IMG/VR virus record: IMGVR_UViG_3300048854_000081
Coordinates: 224,001-288,000 of that record
Reading direction: 5' to 3' (one strand)
Length of the DNA: 64,000 bases
Source of the DNA: a virus
Lineage: Duplodnaviria > Caudoviricetes
In this document: in pieces, positions 55,770 to 61,995 of the stretch
Position numbering within the stretch: position 1 is the first letter of the stretch
How the letters are laid out: the number at the start of each line of letters is the position of its first letter
The notes under the pieces: generated by a model
Told to the model about the DNA's origin: nothing
Database searches by the model: none
The model's input: the letters and a program-made list of their open reading frames with translations, nothing else
Program-made: the position numbers and the translations under genes

Positions 55770-55970
55770 ATGTACATTTGTCTTTGTAACGGCGTCACAG
55801 ATGTAATGATCTTGTGCGAAATTACTAAAGGAAACAATACCTTGGAAGGTATTACTGAAGCGTTGAACGTAGCAAACATATGTGGCTCCTGTCAAGACGA
55901 AGTTCAAGAACTCCTTGATAAGCATGGAAAGCCCAAACATCCATTTCTAAACATAGTCAAAATTGACTAA
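55770..55970 (+). CDS. bfd: Bacterioferritin-associated ferredoxin-like [2Fe-2S] protein
   Basis: MYICLCNGVTD...CGSC. Confidence 0.8.
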   Translation: MYICLCNGVTDVMILCEITKGNNTLEGITEALNVANICGSCQDEVQELLDKHGKPKHPFLNIVKID

Positions 55971-56015
55971 TTCCCTTTAAACCGGTATCATCACTTCTTC
56001 AATGAAGGATGATCC

Positions 56016-56576
56016 ATGGGTACTGTCAATCATAAAGCCATACTAAATGCCAAGAACATCACCGTAAAGAATGGCTTTGCCTTCTTTTGGGGAAGCCCGT
56101 TCTCCCAGTGGTATAAGTCACCATTTACCATGGCTGGCGCTACCTTTGAGACTGCCGAGCATTACATGATGTACGGCAAGGCCACGATCTTCGGTGACGC
56201 TAAGATTGCCAAGGACATCCTCAGGACTAAAGACCCCAAGAAGGTCAAAGCATTGGGTAAGCAAGTCGGTGGGTTCCTTGAGAACACGTGGAACCTACAC
56301 AAGTACAATGTTGTGTACTCAGGTAACATTGAAAAATTTAAACAGAATAAAGAGTTGGCCTATTTGCTAATTTTGTCTGGTGATTTAGAGCTTGTTGAAG
56401 CCAGTCCCTACGACAAGATTTGGGGTATTGGTATGGGTGTAGATAATCCTAACATTACCGACAAGAGTAAGTGGCAAGGCGAAAATTTACTTGGTAAGGT
56501 ACTGATGGATGTTCGCAAGTACCTTATTGAACATTGGGATGGTGGAGTATCAGATTATGGATTCAGTAAAGACTAA
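56016..56576 (+). CDS. NADAR family ADP-ribose glycohydrolase
   Basis: FSQWY, TAEHYMM..KA..F.D, KF.QN, LVEASPYD.IWGIG, G.NLLG..LM. Confidence 0.92.
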   Translation: MGTVNHKAILNAKNITVKNGFAFFWGSPFSQWYKSPFTMAGATFETAEHYMMYGKATIFGDAKIAKDILRTKDPKKVKALGKQVGGFLENTWNLHKYNVVYSGNIEKFKQNKELAYLLILSGDLELVEASPYDKIWGIGMGVDNPNITDKSKWQGENLLGKVLMDVRKYLIEHWDGGVSDYGFSKD

Positions 56577-57114
56577 ACTTATGAAAGCCCAAATCTTGGC
56601 TCAGTCCAAGTTTATACCGACTAAGAAATATGACGGTAGGGTAATTCTCTTTCTGGATTTTGATGGTGTACTTCACGCGTTCAAGGCTGGCTTTATTGAG
56701 GAAGACCTTTGGTTACAGAATCATTTCCTTGAGTCCATTCTAAAAGAATTGGATAACGTGGATGTGGTGGTCTCTTCCATGTGGGCTAAGAAGCGGACAC
56801 TGGCTGAATTGAAAGCATACTTCTCTGAAGATGTTCGCCATCGGTTCGTAGGGCATGTCACTCGACACACCGAAGAGCGTTACAATGACGTGAGAGGTTA
56901 CCTTGCTTCGCGTGGTCAGTCTGATGCGGTATGGATCGCTGTAGATGATCTTGCCACCTTCCATGTCAATGATCCTGTTGTTCGCACCGATCACCTTATT
57001 GGTCTCACCAAAGAGACTGCACAAACATTACGTAATGCTCTTATTTCACCATTAGAATATTACACATTCGTCGGTTTCGATCCAAAAATATCAATCGAAT
57101 CGATCCAAGCCTAA
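56557..57114 (+). CDS. HAD-superfamily phosphatase (RNA-repair-associated type)
   Basis: LFLDFDGVL, VVSS.W, WIAVDD, GLT. Confidence 0.8.
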   Translation: MDSVKTKLMKAQILAQSKFIPTKKYDGRVILFLDFDGVLHAFKAGFIEEDLWLQNHFLESILKELDNVDVVVSSMWAKKRTLAELKAYFSEDVRHRFVGHVTRHTEERYNDVRGYLASRGQSDAVWIAVDDLATFHVNDPVVRTDHLIGLTKETAQTLRNALISPLEYYTFVGFDPKISIESIQA

Positions 57115-57120
57115 ATAGAA

Positions 57121-57165
57121 GTGTCAGGTTTATCAACTTGACACACAATTGAAACCAGCTACAAT
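57121..57165 (+). promoter_or_regulatory. sigma70 promoter with a palindrome over the -35 box
   Basis: GTGTCAGGTT-TATC-AACTTGACAC; TTGACA 57138-57143, TACAAT 57160-57165. Confidence 0.6.
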
Positions 57166-57175
57166 TAGCGCACAC

Positions 57176-57197
57176 TATCACATAGGAGTTATGGATA
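57176..57197 (+). promoter_or_regulatory. RBS-masking bulged hairpin, copy 1
   Basis: TATC-A-CATAG-GAG-TTATG-GATA. Confidence 0.7.
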
Positions 57198-58393
57198 TGA
57201 GCAAGAAAAATGATACATCACTGGCAATCACGTCAGACAGTTCCCTTACCATTAGCGGTAATGTAAATATTACTGTTAATAAAAAGTATACACACGGTGT
57301 GTACATCGGAAGGTTTCAGCCCTTCCACCTCGGCCACCTCCACCTCGTGGAGCATGCGCTCAATCTAGCTGAGAAGCTTATTATTGTTGTCGGCTCACAC
57401 AACAAACCCCGCGACTGGAAGAACCCTTGGACATCGGCTGAACGCATTGACATGATCAAGGCGTCGTTGACTGATGAACAGCGCGAACGTGTCTACTTCC
57501 AGACCGTTGAAGATCGTCTTTATACTAATAAAGAATGGCAGGCTTCGATCTATGAAGCCGTCGATGCCGTGCTCCTTCAGTATTCTAAGTATAGAATTAA
57601 GAGCAACGCTGAAGGTGGCACCGCAAAGATTTGTCTTGTAGGTTTTAATAAGGATGATTCTAGCTCGTATCAGAAGTGGTTCCCTGAGTTTGCACTTGAG
57701 GAAGCACCCATGTACAATATGGAAGAAGGCGATGACGTGTTGAGCGCTACCATGCTCCGTGAAATGGTTTACGAAAACCATGTCGGATCAATGCGTTCCC
57801 ACGTTCCCGCTGGTGCCTTTGCTTTTATTAAGGAATGGCTGAAGACCGAAAATGCCCAGTATGTGAAGGACTGGTATGTGCATGAGGGTGAGTATCAGAA
57901 ACCTTATGAAACTCTTCCATACGGTACCAACTTTTACACGGCAGATTCAGTAGTCTTTCAGGGTAACCATGTCCTGATGGGTAAGCGTAAGTTTCATCCG
58001 GGTAAGGGTCTATGGGCACTTCCGGGTGGTCACGTCAACAAGAATGAACTTGCACTGGAAGCCTCTGTTCGCGAACTTTACGAAGAGACCAAGCTTAAGG
58101 TTCCTGAAAAGGTTCTGCTGGGTAGCTTCATCGGTGAAAAGCTTTTTGATCATCCAGACCGTTCGCTCCGTGGACGTTTGGGTAAGAAGGTCGGTCGCAC
58201 TGTATCGATTTCACATTGCTTCGAACTGAGTGATGAAGCGGGCATTCCACGCACTACACCGGCTGACGATCTTGAGGAAACGTGGTTCTTCACGATTTCT
58301 GAAATCCGTGCCATGCGTAACGAAATTTTCGAAGACCATGCTGACCAGATCGAATACTGGATTCCGCGCCTTAATGATAAGAAATACCGCTGA
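57197..58393 (+). CDS. nadM: Bifunctional NMN adenylyltransferase / Nudix ADP-ribose pyrophosphatase
   Basis: GRFQPFHLGH, NPW...ER, SAT..RE; Nudix box GGHV...E....A..RELYEET. Confidence 0.93.
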   Translation: MSKKNDTSLAITSDSSLTISGNVNITVNKKYTHGVYIGRFQPFHLGHLHLVEHALNLAEKLIIVVGSHNKPRDWKNPWTSAERIDMIKASLTDEQRERVYFQTVEDRLYTNKEWQASIYEAVDAVLLQYSKYRIKSNAEGGTAKICLVGFNKDDSSSYQKWFPEFALEEAPMYNMEEGDDVLSATMLREMVYENHVGSMRSHVPAGAFAFIKEWLKTENAQYVKDWYVHEGEYQKPYETLPYGTNFYTADSVVFQGNHVLMGKRKFHPGKGLWALPGGHVNKNELALEASVRELYEETKLKVPEKVLLGSFIGEKLFDHPDRSLRGRLGKKVGRTVSISHCFELSDEAGIPRTTPADDLEETWFFTISEIRAMRNEIFEDHADQIEYWIPRLNDKKYR

Positions 58394-58403
58394 GGAAGTA
58401 CTA

Positions 58404-58649
58404 ATGAAGTCCAATCTGTCTCCACAGGACACCCTCCGCATTGTCGGAAAAGCCTTAGAGTCATTCATGCGAGACATTAGTCCGAATGGCTTCGTTGTAA
58501 AGGATACAGAGAGTAAAAAGGATTATATAGTTCTAATTAACCCCATGGGTGAAATGATCATTGATGAAGCCATTGAGATTCCGGACGAAGATGACTGCAC
58601 AATTAAAGAAGTCTTCTGCCTGAGTCCAATGTGCTCCACGGTACACTAA
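58404..58649 (+). CDS. Hypothetical protein
   Basis: RBS GAGG; ATG at 58404. Confidence 0.55.
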   Translation: MKSNLSPQDTLRIVGKALESFMRDISPNGFVVKDTESKKDYIVLINPMGEMIIDEAIEIPDEDDCTIKEVFCLSPMCSTVH

Positions 58650-58650
58650 T

Positions 58651-59061
58651 ATGTTTCATATAGATTATAAACTTGACAAGGATAGCCATAATGGAATTGG
58701 ACTTTTTGTAACTCAAAATGTCCTTGAAGGTGACATCGTAGTTGACTATGATGAAGAATGGGTAAGAGTCATTTACCTTGAAACGCTTGAACAGATGTCG
58801 TCTATAACCAGAAAGAGCATTTTGAAACATGCTTATGATGGTGCAGCCCATGCTAAGTATGGTCTACCGGAAGGTTACATATACTTTGATCTTGACGATT
58901 GTAGGTTTCTGAATCATTCGGATAATCCATCGATTGCTTTTGATTATGAAGATGAGAAGTATAAGGCCACAAGAGATTTGATCATCGGCGATGAACTAAC
59001 GATGGATTATCGAGAGTTCTGCACAGTAGGAAAGTATTGCGCGGACTTTCTTTCGGATTGA
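58651..59061 (+). CDS. SET-domain methyltransferase
   Basis: GIGLF, RFLNHS.NP, A.RD...GDELT.DY. Confidence 0.88.
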   Translation: MFHIDYKLDKDSHNGIGLFVTQNVLEGDIVVDYDEEWVRVIYLETLEQMSSITRKSILKHAYDGAAHAKYGLPEGYIYFDLDDCRFLNHSDNPSIAFDYEDEKYKATRDLIIGDELTMDYREFCTVGKYCADFLSD

Positions 59062-59085
59062 CAAAACAGATTTAACACGTATAAT
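59058..59085 (+). promoter_or_regulatory. Consensus sigma70 promoter for nampt
   Basis: TTGACA-N16-TATAAT. Confidence 0.75.
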
Positions 59086-59109
59086 ACAAAACTTAATCAA
59101 CAAATTGAC

Positions 59110-59131
59110 TGACACATAGGAGTTATGGTCA
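59110..59131 (+). promoter_or_regulatory. RBS-masking bulged hairpin, copy 2
   Basis: TGAC-A-CATAG-GAG-TTATG-GTCA. Confidence 0.7.
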
Positions 59132-60543
59132 TGAATAACAAAATTAAACTAAACCCGATTCTCACCGCCGACAGTTACAAGATGTCGCATTGGCTTCAGT
59201 ATCCCGCCAAGACCACTGATGTATTCAGTTACATCGAATCACGCGGTTGTGGCTTCACCAATGAACTGATGTTCTTTGGTCTACAGGCTTATCTTCGTGA
59301 ATACCTGAGCCAGCGCATCACCATGGAAGACGTGGAGTTTGCTAAGACTCTCGCGGAGGCTCATGGCGAGCCGTTCAACTATGACGGCTGGAAGTACATC
59401 GTTGATCGTTACGATGGTCTCCTTCCCCTTACTATCAAGGCCGCAAAGGAAGGTGCAGTGATTCCCCTGCACAATGCTATCCTTACTGTTCACACCAGCG
59501 ACGCCAAGCTATTCTGGCTTCCGTCGTATGTCGAAACTGCCCTGCTTCGTGCCATTTGGTATCCTTCGACGGTTGCCACCCTTTCGTATACCTGCAAGAA
59601 GATTATGCACAAGTATCTTCTTGAAACCTCGGATCAGACCGATAGCCTGAACTTCATGCTTCATGACTTCGGCGCTCGTGGTGTAAGCAGTTCGGAAAGC
59701 GCAACGCTTGGCGGCATGGCTCACATCGTCAACTTCATGGGTACCGATACGGTCGAAGCTATCGTTGGTACGATGAATTATTACGATGCTCCTACGGTTT
59801 GTGCCTTCTCGATTCCTGCGGCTGAGCATTCGACCATTACTAGCTGGGAACGTGCAAACGAATTCGAAGCTTATTCGAATATGGTTGACCAGTACGCCAA
59901 GAAGGATAAGATTTTCGCGGTCGTATCGGACAGTTACGATATCTACAACGCAGTCGAGAACATGTGGAGCAAGGGTGGCTTGTTTGCCCGCGTCAAGGCT
60001 GCTGGATCGCGCGTGGTGATCCGTCCGGATTCAGGTGATGCTACGCAGGTACCAGTGAAGCTCGTTGAGCTTATCGCTGAACTGGAAGGCTTTACGATCA
60101 ATAGTAAGGGTTACAAGGTTCTTCCGGATTACGTTCGTGTCATTCAGGGTGATGGCATCACAATTGATACGATTCCGGTTATTCTGGAAAACCTCAAGGC
60201 TGCTGGCTTCAGCGCTGAAAACCTGAACTTCGGTATGGGTGGTGGTTTGCTACAGCACGTTAACCGTGATACCTTCAAGTTCGCGCAGAAGTGCTCGGCT
60301 GCTCTGGTTGATGGTAAGTGGCGTGAAGTATTCAAAGACCCTATTGATGACAAGGGTAAGGTATCGAAAAGGGGGCGTATCAGTTTGATCAAGGATGATC
60401 AGGGTAATTATCAGACTATTCGTTTGGAAGACCCACTTGAACGCAAGGAAGAACTTGATATTGTTTTCAAGAACGGACAGATCATCAAAGAGACCACATT
60501 CGATGAAGTCCGTAAGCGTGCAAACGAATATTTTGTAAAGTAA
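59131..60543 (+). CDS. nadV: Nicotinamide phosphoribosyltransferase
   Basis: DSYK.SH..QYP, LHDFGARG, PAAEHS, VVSDSYD, IRPDSGD, IQGDG, FGMGGGLLQ, K.SK.G. Confidence 0.95.
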   Translation: MNNKIKLNPILTADSYKMSHWLQYPAKTTDVFSYIESRGCGFTNELMFFGLQAYLREYLSQRITMEDVEFAKTLAEAHGEPFNYDGWKYIVDRYDGLLPLTIKAAKEGAVIPLHNAILTVHTSDAKLFWLPSYVETALLRAIWYPSTVATLSYTCKKIMHKYLLETSDQTDSLNFMLHDFGARGVSSSESATLGGMAHIVNFMGTDTVEAIVGTMNYYDAPTVCAFSIPAAEHSTITSWERANEFEAYSNMVDQYAKKDKIFAVVSDSYDIYNAVENMWSKGGLFARVKAAGSRVVIRPDSGDATQVPVKLVELIAELEGFTINSKGYKVLPDYVRVIQGDGITIDTIPVILENLKAAGFSAENLNFGMGGGLLQHVNRDTFKFAQKCSAALVDGKWREVFKDPIDDKGKVSKRGRISLIKDDQGNYQTIRLEDPLERKEELDIVFKNGQIIKETTFDEVRKRANEYFVK

Positions 60544-60554
60544 GGAAACCCTCT

Positions 60555-61151
60555 ATGGTCATGGAAGAGTTTATTTTGAGAGCGCATACCGATAAAGGTA
60601 TGCGCTTAATCGAAAAGATCGAAGACTTGATTACCAAAGAACTGAAGGTTGATGTAAGTATCATCGATCACAGAACCTATAATCCTTCAGAATTTGGGGT
60701 TACAGAATGGAGAAAGAAGTTCAAGACGATTATATCTCTTGACAAACATCTTGCTGAGTTCTTTGGTGTCGATTACTTTCAGATTTCAAGAATCTTCAAA
60801 GATAATGGTGATGTTCACTCACGGAGATTGGGTGGATACGATGGCTATAGAACGTATCCGTACAATGGATATCACATCATCGATACCGATATGGTTCATG
60901 GTGACTCAATCAATTTAGCTTGTAAGATTTTTGCTACGCATTCGTTTAACGTTCCTATCCTAGTCGAGGAAGGTCAAGACCTGATCGATATGGAAGATTT
61001 GTTTATGGATAACTCACTTCTGAAGACAGATAGTGGAATTATTGGTTGCAACTATCTTTTAAATCGTGAGTTCTTTACTAAGAGAACTTCCCTTCCAGAA
61101 TTTATGTACGACCCCATCAGAGAGATTATCATCCATGCAAACTCTAATTGA
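60555..61151 (+). CDS. Hypothetical protein
   Basis: ORF between nadV and nadE. Confidence 0.6.
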   Translation: MVMEEFILRAHTDKGMRLIEKIEDLITKELKVDVSIIDHRTYNPSEFGVTEWRKKFKTIISLDKHLAEFFGVDYFQISRIFKDNGDVHSRRLGGYDGYRTYPYNGYHIIDTDMVHGDSINLACKIFATHSFNVPILVEEGQDLIDMEDLFMDNSLLKTDSGIIGCNYLLNREFFTKRTSLPEFMYDPIREIIIHANSN

Positions 61152-61995
61152 ACAGATTCGTAAATGGTTTGATGAAAACAATCTCGATCATGCAGTGATT
61201 GGTTATTCTGGTGGTATCGACTCGGCCACGACTGCCGCTCTGATCCATCGTGCTGAAATTCCTATCACTCTTGTGCAGGTATGCCTAGAGAATCATACAC
61301 TATCATCCAGAACCATTATGATGGATTTCTTAGGTGATATTGAATACGCATACCGTGAAGGCATAGACAGTCCGTATACCCGCTGGGAATTCATTAGAAT
61401 GCCGGACATTTCCTATCTACGGGATGCTGGTAAGGAAGCTGCCCTTCCGATCATTCGCAATGCCTATTTTTACGGCGTAGCCGCAGACCTTCGTGATGAC
61501 AACAAGCGTCCGGTCGTAGTTGGTACTATCAACTTTGATGAGGCTGCTTATCTAGGATTTTGGGGAAAGGCATCCGATGGTGCTCAGGATTTCTATCCTA
61601 TCAGTCATCTTCACAAGTCAGAAGTCTATGCACTTGCTAAGGAGCTTGGTGTTCCTCAAGAGATTATCGATGCCGTACCATCAGGTGATCTACAATACTC
61701 AGGTGACCTAAACGATTATAAAATGATCGGTGCGACTTACGATCAGATTGAAGGACTCGCTAAGTTTGTTGATTCGCCTAAGGTAAAGACTGTAATCCAA
61801 ATTATGGAATTTATTGAGAACAACATTGATGATCCACTCAAGTTTGTAAAAAATATCAATAGAAATTCATTCAAGTATAATCAGCCATTCCCTAACGTTC
61901 ATGTTAATGGTAAACTTGAATTATTTCGTAAGAGAGCATATCCCACCATCATGATTGCTGCCTCAAATTATGAATTCTTGTCCAATTTATTGTAA
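61135..61995 (+). CDS. nadE: NH3-dependent NAD+ synthetase-like PP-loop ATPase
   Basis: GYSGGIDS, GT.N..E..LGFWGKASDG..D..PI..L.KSEVY.LA..LGVP, G.TY. Confidence 0.85.
   Translation: MQTLIEQIRKWFDENNLDHAVIGYSGGIDSATTAALIHRAEIPITLVQVCLENHTLSSRTIMMDFLGDIEYAYREGIDSPYTRWEFIRMPDISYLRDAGKEAALPIIRNAYFYGVAADLRDDNKRPVVVGTINFDEAAYLGFWGKASDGAQDFYPISHLHKSEVYALAKELGVPQEIIDAVPSGDLQYSGDLNDYKMIGATYDQIEGLAKFVDSPKVKTVIQIMEFIENNIDDPLKFVKNINRNSFKYNQPFPNVHVNGKLELFRKRAYPTIMIAASNYEFLSNLL

Follow-up and report, generated by a model that had tools for sequence, protein, structure and literature searches.

Two-Hairpin mRNA Leaders of NAD-Salvage Genes and Their Putative Single-Hairpin Form in a 350-kb Phage: A Candidate Translational Operator

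Introduction

The DNA analysed here, called the window, is a stretch of 64,000 nucleotides (nt) from a 350,036-bp phage genome (IMG/VR record IMGVR_UViG_3300048854_000081, positions 224,001 to 288,000), and it carries two genes of NAD salvage, nadM-Nudix and nadV, each with a sigma70-like promoter of its own and each starting at the end of a small hairpin that spans its ribosome-binding site (RBS). The enzymes of these genes, Nmnat (NadM) and Nampt (NadV), form NARP2, a published phage counter-defence that rebuilds NAD+ (bioRxiv 10.1101/2024.02.11.579819). Judged by sequence comparison, the hairpin, here called HP2, is the start-proximal half of an mRNA leader that precedes nadM and nadV genes and normally comprises two hairpins; in this phage the leader is reduced and fused to promoters. 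The start-distal hairpin is called HP1. We describe the hairpins of the window, their relatives in phages and in bacteria, and the reading of HP2 as a translational operator together with its competitors.

The Genes and Hairpins of the Window

57138..57165, plus strand: sigma70-like promoter of nadM-Nudix, TTGACA-16 nt-TACAAT (consensus scan, 11/12)
57176..57197, plus strand: HP2 of nadM, from sequence, minimum-free-energy (MFE) fold, lineage pair counts and RNAalifold; the lower stem joins 57176-57179 to 57194-57197, A 57180 bulges out, the upper stem joins 57181-57185 to 57189-57193, and the loop is 57186-57188 (or GGAGU, 57185-57189); AGGAG 57184-57188
57197..58393, plus strand: nadM-Nudix, 398 aa, NatV-type nicotinamide mononucleotide (NMN) adenylyltransferase fused to a Nudix hydrolase (Pfam CTP_transf_like 8.5e-15, NUDIX 3.6e-16)
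59058..59085, plus strand: sigma70-like promoter of nadV, TTGACA-16 nt-TATAAT (consensus scan, 12/12)
59110..59131, plus strand: HP2 of nadV, from sequence, MFE fold, lineage pair counts, RNAalifold and a shared 21-mer; the lower stem joins 59110-59113 to 59128-59131, A 59114 bulges out, the upper stem joins 59115-59119 to 59123-59127, and the loop is 59120-59122; AGGAG 59118-59122
59131..60543, plus strand: nadV, 470 aa, nicotinamide phosphoribosyltransferase (Pfam NAMPT_N 1.1e-27, NAPRTase 2.1e-48)

The starting point was a sequence-only reading of the window, which noticed that both genes share the exact 16-mer CACATAGGAGTTATGG, at 57179-57194 before nadM-Nudix and at 59113-59128 before nadV, each copy ending 2 nt short of the start codon. 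It saw no third copy, and a search of the window at up to 3 mismatches agrees, the only further match (26903, 3 mismatches) not being an RBS. Extending the scan to the entire genome, as that reading had proposed, returned only these 2 copies at up to 2 mismatches, both at NAD-salvage starts, so that the 16-mer does not stand before many unrelated genes; the other genes of the NAD cluster (56016-61995) lack it in the window and whole-genome searches alike. The 16-mer includes an in-frame ATG (57191-57193 and 59125-59127), 2 nt past AGGAG and 6 nt ahead of the likely start, which is conserved along with the 3' arm of the hairpin. Being only 2 nt from AGGAG, this inner ATG is probably unused, and the second ATG, 8 nt past AGGAG, is the likely start codon of both genes. 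The same phage holds a second duplicated RBS stretch outside the window, TTGAACTTGGAGTAAGTCA followed by ATGGA (L299:940-960 and L299:1350-1370; G000:C1 at about 335,740 and 336,150), which can form a weak ACUUG[GAG]UAAGU hairpin and precedes two adjacent small open reading frames (ORFs) that match no Pfam family, one of 124 and one of 74 aa.

The general layout of HP2 is a lower stem of 3-4 bp, a bulged A, an upper stem of 4-5 bp and a 3' arm that reaches the AUG. The hairpin drawn by the sequence-only reading is the RNAfold MFE structure of both copies, at -3.9 kcal/mol for nadM and -5.8 kcal/mol for nadV, and the lower stems, UAUC/GAUA and UGAC/GUCA, remain paired despite their different sequences. 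Its further claim that the stem ends on the A of the AUG describes the outermost pair of the window copies correctly, but this pair fails in 5 of 14 leaders of the lineage described below. RNAalifold, run independently on those 14 members, again places the bulged A between two stems, a lower one of 3 bp and an upper one of 4 bp, and gives a pentaloop, GGAGU; closure of a GAG triloop by a G.U pair is optional.

Each gene had also been credited with a separate sigma70-like promoter, and the consensus matches bear this out, the two sites being the best of their kind in the region. From promoter spacing, the nadM transcript is predicted to begin near A57172, 3-4 nt ahead of HP2, and the nadV transcript near 59091-59092, with an A/C/U-rich leader of about 18 nt ahead of HP2. 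Upstream of the nadM promoter, just past the stop codon of the preceding HAD gene, stands AAUAGA (57114-57119), which resembles the HP1 loop; no stem could be drawn around it, and it may be an HP1 vestige or chance.

A Lineage with HP2 Alone

Among 2.9 million IMG/VR contigs, the 21-mer CACATAGGAGTTATGGNNATG occurs at 14 sites in 8 contigs, before NadV genes (7), NadM genes (3) and a conserved 115-aa ORF directly after nadM (4), and nowhere else. The NadV proteins of these relatives are only 51-53% identical to that of the window. The window phage and the seven related contigs carry a sigma70-type promoter where HP1 would be.

A gapless alignment of 14 lineage leaders bears on the covariation that the sequence-only reading had wished to see tested in relatives. 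The structure drawn by that reading is paired in 94.4% of cells, a share that falls to 46% or less on sliding the partner, and the three inner pairs of the lower stem covary (GC 10/AU 2/UG 1; AU 9/UA 4/GC 1, with none unpaired; CG 13/UA 1). Compensation extends to the upper stem, which is CUUAG/UUAAG in the nadV leader of contig L003 and CGAUAG/UUAUCG in the nadM leader of L108. One member, the nadM leader of L109, joins both forms, having an HP1 with an AAAGA loop followed by the exact 21-mer HP2 of the window. Within the window's lineage HP2 is identical between genes and between genomes, whereas none of the 34 within-genome pairs of the two-hairpin clade has two identical copies. One invariant piece is thus kept per leader, the HP1 loop in the main clade and the upper part of HP2 here.

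The 115-aa ORF (PHROG 1540) stands directly after nadM with the exact 21-mer in four relatives (L108:4117-4461, L109:4111-4458, L214, L217) and has no homologue in the window phage genome. In relatives an RNA ligase gene separates nadM from nadV (L109:4476-6564, L108:5130-5762), and in L109 an IS605-type TnpB (OrfB_IS605 with a Cas12f1-like TNB domain) is inserted beside it.

The Two-Hairpin Leader in Phages

The wider family was sampled in 184 IMG/VR loci with NadV or NadM homologues. Before most nadV and nadM starts in these loci stands a hairpin, NNNN-AG[GAG]CU-NNNN, which ends at the ATG and whose stems vary from phage to phage. In many loci HP1 lies 5-15 nt upstream, behind a short A/C/U-rich linker, with a covarying stem and an AUAGA loop closed by a G-C pair. 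A descriptor run blind over all ORF starts of the loci found an RBS hairpin of at least 5 bp before 98 of 128 NadV and 79 of 125 NadM starts, as against 316 of 3024 other ORFs; both hairpins together were found at 51, 45 and 17 of the same starts, respectively, and 9 of the last 17 are small and lie directly ahead of nadM.

A covariance model was built from a gapless seed of 12 sequences (A5), since in the MAFFT leader alignments (A3, A4) gaps fell inside the stems and these alignments were dropped for pair counts. At E<1 the model found 72 + 97 matches in 1.24 Mb of phage loci, all on the sense strand; with 55 bacterial matches, described below, the total is 224, and 224 of 224 lie on the sense strand. 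The leader is present in about 100 phage contigs. In the 124 aligned matches, pairing holds for 91.4% of cells, against 58% after shuffling, each of the 14 pairs has compensatory double changes, and the covariation score is 0.79, compared with 0.19 for shuffled and at most 0.075 for slid controls. This alignment was fitted to the model and is hence biased towards structure, but three lines independent of the fitting, namely strand bias, slid controls and G.U pairs, indicate that selection acts on RNA. HP2 is closed by G-C and by G.U equally often, in 55 rows each, which points to selection on RNA rather than on a DNA palindrome. Behind the 124 matches stand NadV (55), NadM (44) and other genes (25), the last comprising several unrelated families of small ORFs of no assigned function and ORFs cut at locus ends. 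The HP1 loop, a pentaloop of the form A-N-A/C-G-A, is ATAGA in 100 of the 124 leaders, ACAGA in 8, AACGA in 5 and other sequences in the rest; the distance from loop to ATG is 8-10 nt in 77 of 101 leaders, a range that the window copies fit, and the median energy of HP2 in the phage family is -3.9 kcal/mol.

Five complete phage genomes of 354-455 kb hold 1-3 matches each at E<=0.03, all within the NAD locus, and the only other match has an E-value of about 1. Among isolates, whole-genome matches occur only in Xanthomonas phage RTH11 and Ralstonia phage RSP15, each at its NAD locus. No leader match was found in the prs+nadV phages Staphylococcus 812, ICP1, BPS15Q2 and PaGz-1, nor in RB43, VH7D, B1VFA and BL57; these eight match-free nadV phages include a KVP40 relative. 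No isolate phage gave a megablast match to the region of the window, and the best protein matches among isolates are at most 54% identical.

The window copies share with the full two-hairpin leader the genes, the strand, the position at the start codon and an HP2 that ends at the AUG with the Shine-Dalgarno (SD) purines in its GGAG/GAG loop. They differ from it by the sigma70-like promoter that stands in place of HP1, and their continuity with full members runs through L109 and through a bulge in the 5' arm, which bacterial leaders share. A further candidate in the window, 1427-1472 (seed-model E 0.14), was rejected as a member: TTTCTTT and an RBS come after its 10-bp, AAAAA-looped hairpin, an arrangement that resembles an ordinary terminator ahead of a gene start.

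At least 3 more unrelated families of 106-136 aa ORFs (PHROGs 37251, 12218, 33851) lie just upstream of nadM with a full two-hairpin leader (for example L165:2642, L168:2679, L175:2096, L014:2483), and these ORFs may belong to the regulon as well. In several jumbo-phage relatives, including RTH11, tmRNA-like genes and tRNA arrays lie a few kb from the NAD-salvage genes (L018:812-1158, L013:6442-7221, L199:9086-12388).

Bacterial Chromosomal Copies

The sequence-only reading had proposed an element of a phage NAD regulon. Its specificity for NAD-salvage genes held up, but the leader is not private to phages, being chromosomal in Burkholderiales and Xanthomonadales. Among 80 chromosomal nadV loci, the 55 matches (E<1, all sense strand) lie before nadM and before nadV, in taxa that include Burkholderia, Paraburkholderia, Xanthomonas, Stenotrophomonas, Lysobacter and Methylococcaceae.

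Bacterial nadV leaders also reproduce the architecture of the window hairpin: their 5' arm carries one bulged base, flanked by a lower stem of 3-4 bp and an upper stem of 4-5 bp, as in GACG-C-GAAG[GAG]CUUC-CGUC of Xanthomonadales and GGC-(A/C)-UAGAG[GAG]CUCUA-GCC of Burkholderia. The shape first drawn for the window recurs here, but the bulge may be A or C and is missing from most phage copies: it is seen in 16 of the 36 leaders from bacteria, in 1 of the 113 two-hairpin leaders from phages and in both window copies.

HP2 as a Candidate Translational Operator

Comparison of phages and bacteria establishes the position of the leader, its structure, its covariation and its specificity for NAD-salvage genes. 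What we infer is control of translation, the direction of that control and its reader: initiation is the step in question because the 30S subunit needs the stretch from SD to AUG single-stranded. We lean, with somewhat more confidence than doubt, towards HP2 being a translational operator that co-regulates nadM and nadV, a function proposed from sequence and structure. HP2 would hold the SD purines in its loop and upper stem, with the 3' arm running into the start codon; 30S loading would require this weak hairpin to open; a trans-acting reader of the invariant nucleotides would shift the equilibrium between the open and closed forms; and both NARP2 enzymes would thereby be dosed together. The weakness of HP2 favours an operator in which a reader sets the equilibrium.

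That there is a reader is argued by the HP1 loop, which is constant in most leaders across 20-74% GC, yet the stems around it covary freely. In the window's lineage, 16-21 nt are frozen at about 51% protein identity, which a purely structural role is unlikely to explain. Because the leader travels with the genes between phages and distant bacteria, its reader should be encoded in the cassette, be a small molecule or belong to universal cellular machinery. NadM(-Nudix) and NadV are the only proteins always present with the leader. NadM was found in 15 of 15 leader-bearing records in which it is not adjacent, and NadV was present too; as NadV co-occurs equally, the test did not single out NadM as the specific partner. 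We favour a cassette protein, NadM-Nudix or NadV, as the putative reader, with a ligand as the alternative. A need for control is plausible because NARP2 is costly: it overproduces NAD+ even without a defence system and consumes phosphoribosyl pyrophosphate (PRPP), and the KVP40 operon was toxic when cloned in E. coli (bioRxiv 10.1101/2024.02.11.579819).

Several observations weigh against the operator. The window hairpins have z-scores of only -0.9 to -1.6, and 14-33 of 200 shuffles fold equally well, so that the case for HP2 rests on the comparison between genomes and not on energy; modelled energies this weak suggest that the hairpins by themselves would repress little. The SD had been placed in the upper stem and loop, and a hairpin does lie at the RBS, but in the RNAalifold consensus the GGAG core is within the loop and not in the stem. 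Some RBS hairpin is seen, under a loose rule, at about 6% of the SD-bearing ORF starts in the phage genome. Concerted change of the HP1 loop within genomes was not above chance (30 of 34 pairs against 27.8 expected; 365 of 5000 permutations do as well). The small ORFs were rejected as a common regulator, since they belong to at least 4 unrelated PHROGs families; in the phage genome the 115-aa ORF is absent and one other family gives a weak match far from the locus. Lastly, HP1 with its G-AUAGA-C loop, the best-conserved part of the family, is absent upstream of both window copies, and the family model R2 scores them at E 2.5-6 with HP1 deleted, a low score explained by the missing hairpin. On these two grounds the window copies could be a relic that lost regulation.

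Alternative Explanations

The same weakness of the hairpins (the phage-family median included) suits a constitutive structural element without a reader, which would fix a low translation rate or protect the 5' ends of short leaders and would be conserved since the NARP2 enzymes are needed sparingly and in fixed ratio. Stem-loops close to the 5' end stabilise mRNAs, and the predicted nadM transcript would begin 3-4 nt ahead of HP2. The dispensability of HP1 in the window's lineage and the cost of NARP2 fit as well. This account leaves unexplained why the G-AUAGA-C loop is invariant over so wide a range of GC content, why nucleotides are frozen in diverged genomes beside stem positions that covary freely, and why the leader is restricted to NAD-salvage genes in genomes of 350-455 kb. 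We regard it as possible, though distinctly less probable than the operator.

A metabolite riboswitch, in which ADP-ribose, NMN, nicotinamide, PRPP or NAD+ would open or close HP2 on binding, is less probable still. The tight association with genes of one pathway in phages and bacteria speaks for it, and movement of the leader with its genes between very different hosts fits a reader independent of host protein. Precedent exists in the guanidine-II riboswitch (mini-ykkC), which likewise consists of two simple covarying hairpins with conserved loops and a variable linker, the SD lying at the 3' hairpin. The loops of that riboswitch, however, are ACGR tetraloops that kiss; the loop census and Rfam searches show no such loops in the leader, and inspection of the leaders revealed no conserved complementarity between HP1 loop and HP2 or tail, whether as pseudoknot or as kissing loops (AUAGA against GAG). 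The conserved nucleotides are a pentaloop and the SD, with no conserved junction or internal loop, and in the window's lineage a 22-nt hairpin would have to be the entire aptamer. The NAD+ riboswitches of class I (nadA motif) and class II (pnuC motif) are also cis leaders of NAD genes, and class II hides the SD, but their genes (nadA, pnuC), taxa and architecture are different and neither these nor any other Rfam model matched the leader at E<=1 in relatives or, above chance level, at E<=10 in the window.

Very unlikely, in our judgement, is an RNA-processing site, cut by a RegB-like enzyme at GGAG or by RNase III/E, that would time expression through inactivation or maturation of the mRNA. 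T4 RegB substrates are described as GGAG in a small loop, and both this display and early-type sigma70 promoters are found here. No RegB (PF10715) or RegA (PF01818) match was found in the genome, but every control genome was equally silent, which makes this negative weak. Against the reading also stand the many early genes that T4 RegB targets, compared with a leader confined to NAD genes, and the presence of the same leader on bacterial chromosomes.

A DNA-level operator, in which an NrtR-type or other repressor would bind the inverted repeat a short way past the promoters, retains hardly any probability. NrtR exerts ADP-ribose-responsive control over nadM-nadV and prs-nadV, its boxes controlling nadM-nadV in Synechocystis (Rodionov et al. 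2008, PMC2330246), and the window sites do lie about 10-50 bp past the -10 boxes. The NrtR site, however, is a symmetric double-stranded one, whereas half of the closing pairs here are G.U, which reads A.C on the opposite strand, wobble pairs occur frequently in the stems, a one-base bulge breaks the symmetry, every model match lies on the sense strand, and the distance is fixed to the AUG and not to the promoters. The Nudix proteins of the phage are NadM-Nudix and two frames of at most 157 aa, too short for a Nudix domain plus winged helix; an NrtR encoded by the host may act on the repeat.

Equally improbable, and on the sequence evidence already contradicted by the conservation data, is a functionless by-product of a promoter-RBS cassette copied between genes (by gene conversion or PeSL-like shuffling) with an incidental hairpin: the copies are identical over 16 nt and the genome holds another duplicated RBS stretch before two small ORFs, but the promoters and flanks of the two copies differ, the 21-mer is kept in 8 contigs despite diverged NadV and with compensatory lower stems, and about 100 phage contigs, as well as bacteria, have homologous hairpins.

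Relation to Known Systems

The sequence-only reading knew of no described element of this kind, and the searches agree. Against Rfam 15, cmscan of window positions 56900-59300 at E<=10 gave only 4 chance-level matches to unrelated families, and 15 leader-bearing loci (7 phage; 8 bacterial and isolate) gave no match at E<=1. The searchable literature, including PMC2330246, PMC5737381 and bioRxiv 10.1101/2024.02.11.579819 (which treats the pathway only), holds no description of the leader. The leader is therefore uncatalogued, within the known class of SD-occluding translational control elements.

Within that class, the MS2/R17 coat-protein operator had been invoked as an analogue. Like HP2 it is small and weak, extends over the initiation region and has one A bulged out of its 5' arm, and there a protein stabilises a hairpin too weak on its own and so represses. 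The MS2/R17 site, however, has an ANYA tetraloop with the bulged A two pairs below it, whereas the loop of the window (GAG or GGAGU) is the SD itself, the bulge lies 4-5 pairs below the loop and is A or C in relatives, and the element is common to two or three genes of a 350-kb double-stranded DNA phage that is not known to encode a levivirus coat protein, no search aimed at one having been made; because the loop differs, the likeness is architectural only. The favoured model has counterparts in the T4 gene 43 hairpin, the gene 32 and RegA sites and E. coli thrS, where an enzyme or regulator binds structure at or next to the SD of its own mRNA, though they have no sequence likeness to the window leaders and RegA was not detected in searches whose controls were also silent. 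PyrR (RF00515) offers a parallel too, since it resembles phosphoribosyltransferases and recognises purine-rich loops of hairpins in the leaders of its own pathway; NadV, however, belongs to another phosphoribosyltransferase class, and RF00515 is among the Rfam models without a match in the 15 loci.

The Surrounding NAD Cluster

The two genes lie in an NAD cluster whose remaining members are as follows.

56016..61995, plus strand: NAD gene cluster (Pfam scan)
56016-56576, plus strand: NADAR (Pfam scan)
56509-57114, plus strand: HAD_SAK_2 phosphatase (Pfam scan)
58404-58649, plus strand: 81-aa ORF
58651-59061, plus strand: SET-domain ORF, 136 aa (Pfam scan)
60555-61151, plus strand: 198-aa ORF
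61066-61995, plus strand: NAD synthase (Pfam scan)

NADAR and a SET domain are unusual neighbours for NARP2 genes. A third sigma70-like site (10/12) stands at 55963-55991, ahead of NADAR.

Significance

To our knowledge, nothing is known of how phages control NARP2, and a leader confined to NARP2 genes makes this question testable. It does so as a small orphan RNA motif with culturable systems, namely phages RTH11 and RSP15 and the bacteria Burkholderia, Stenotrophomonas and Lysobacter. To this the window contributes a deletion variant made by nature, HP2 alone behind promoters of its own, which tells which half of the leader is dispensable and which nucleotides then become invariant. Tentatively, and with doubt prevailing, the leader family may be a sensor of NAD-pathway status, either as a minimal riboswitch or as an operator that NadM-Nudix or NadV would read in a metabolite-dependent way, with ADP-ribose, NMN, nicotinamide and PRPP as candidate metabolites. 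If so, phages and bacteria would switch on the reconstitution of NAD+ only while NAD+ is being destroyed, for example by Thoeris, DSR and SIR2-type defences.

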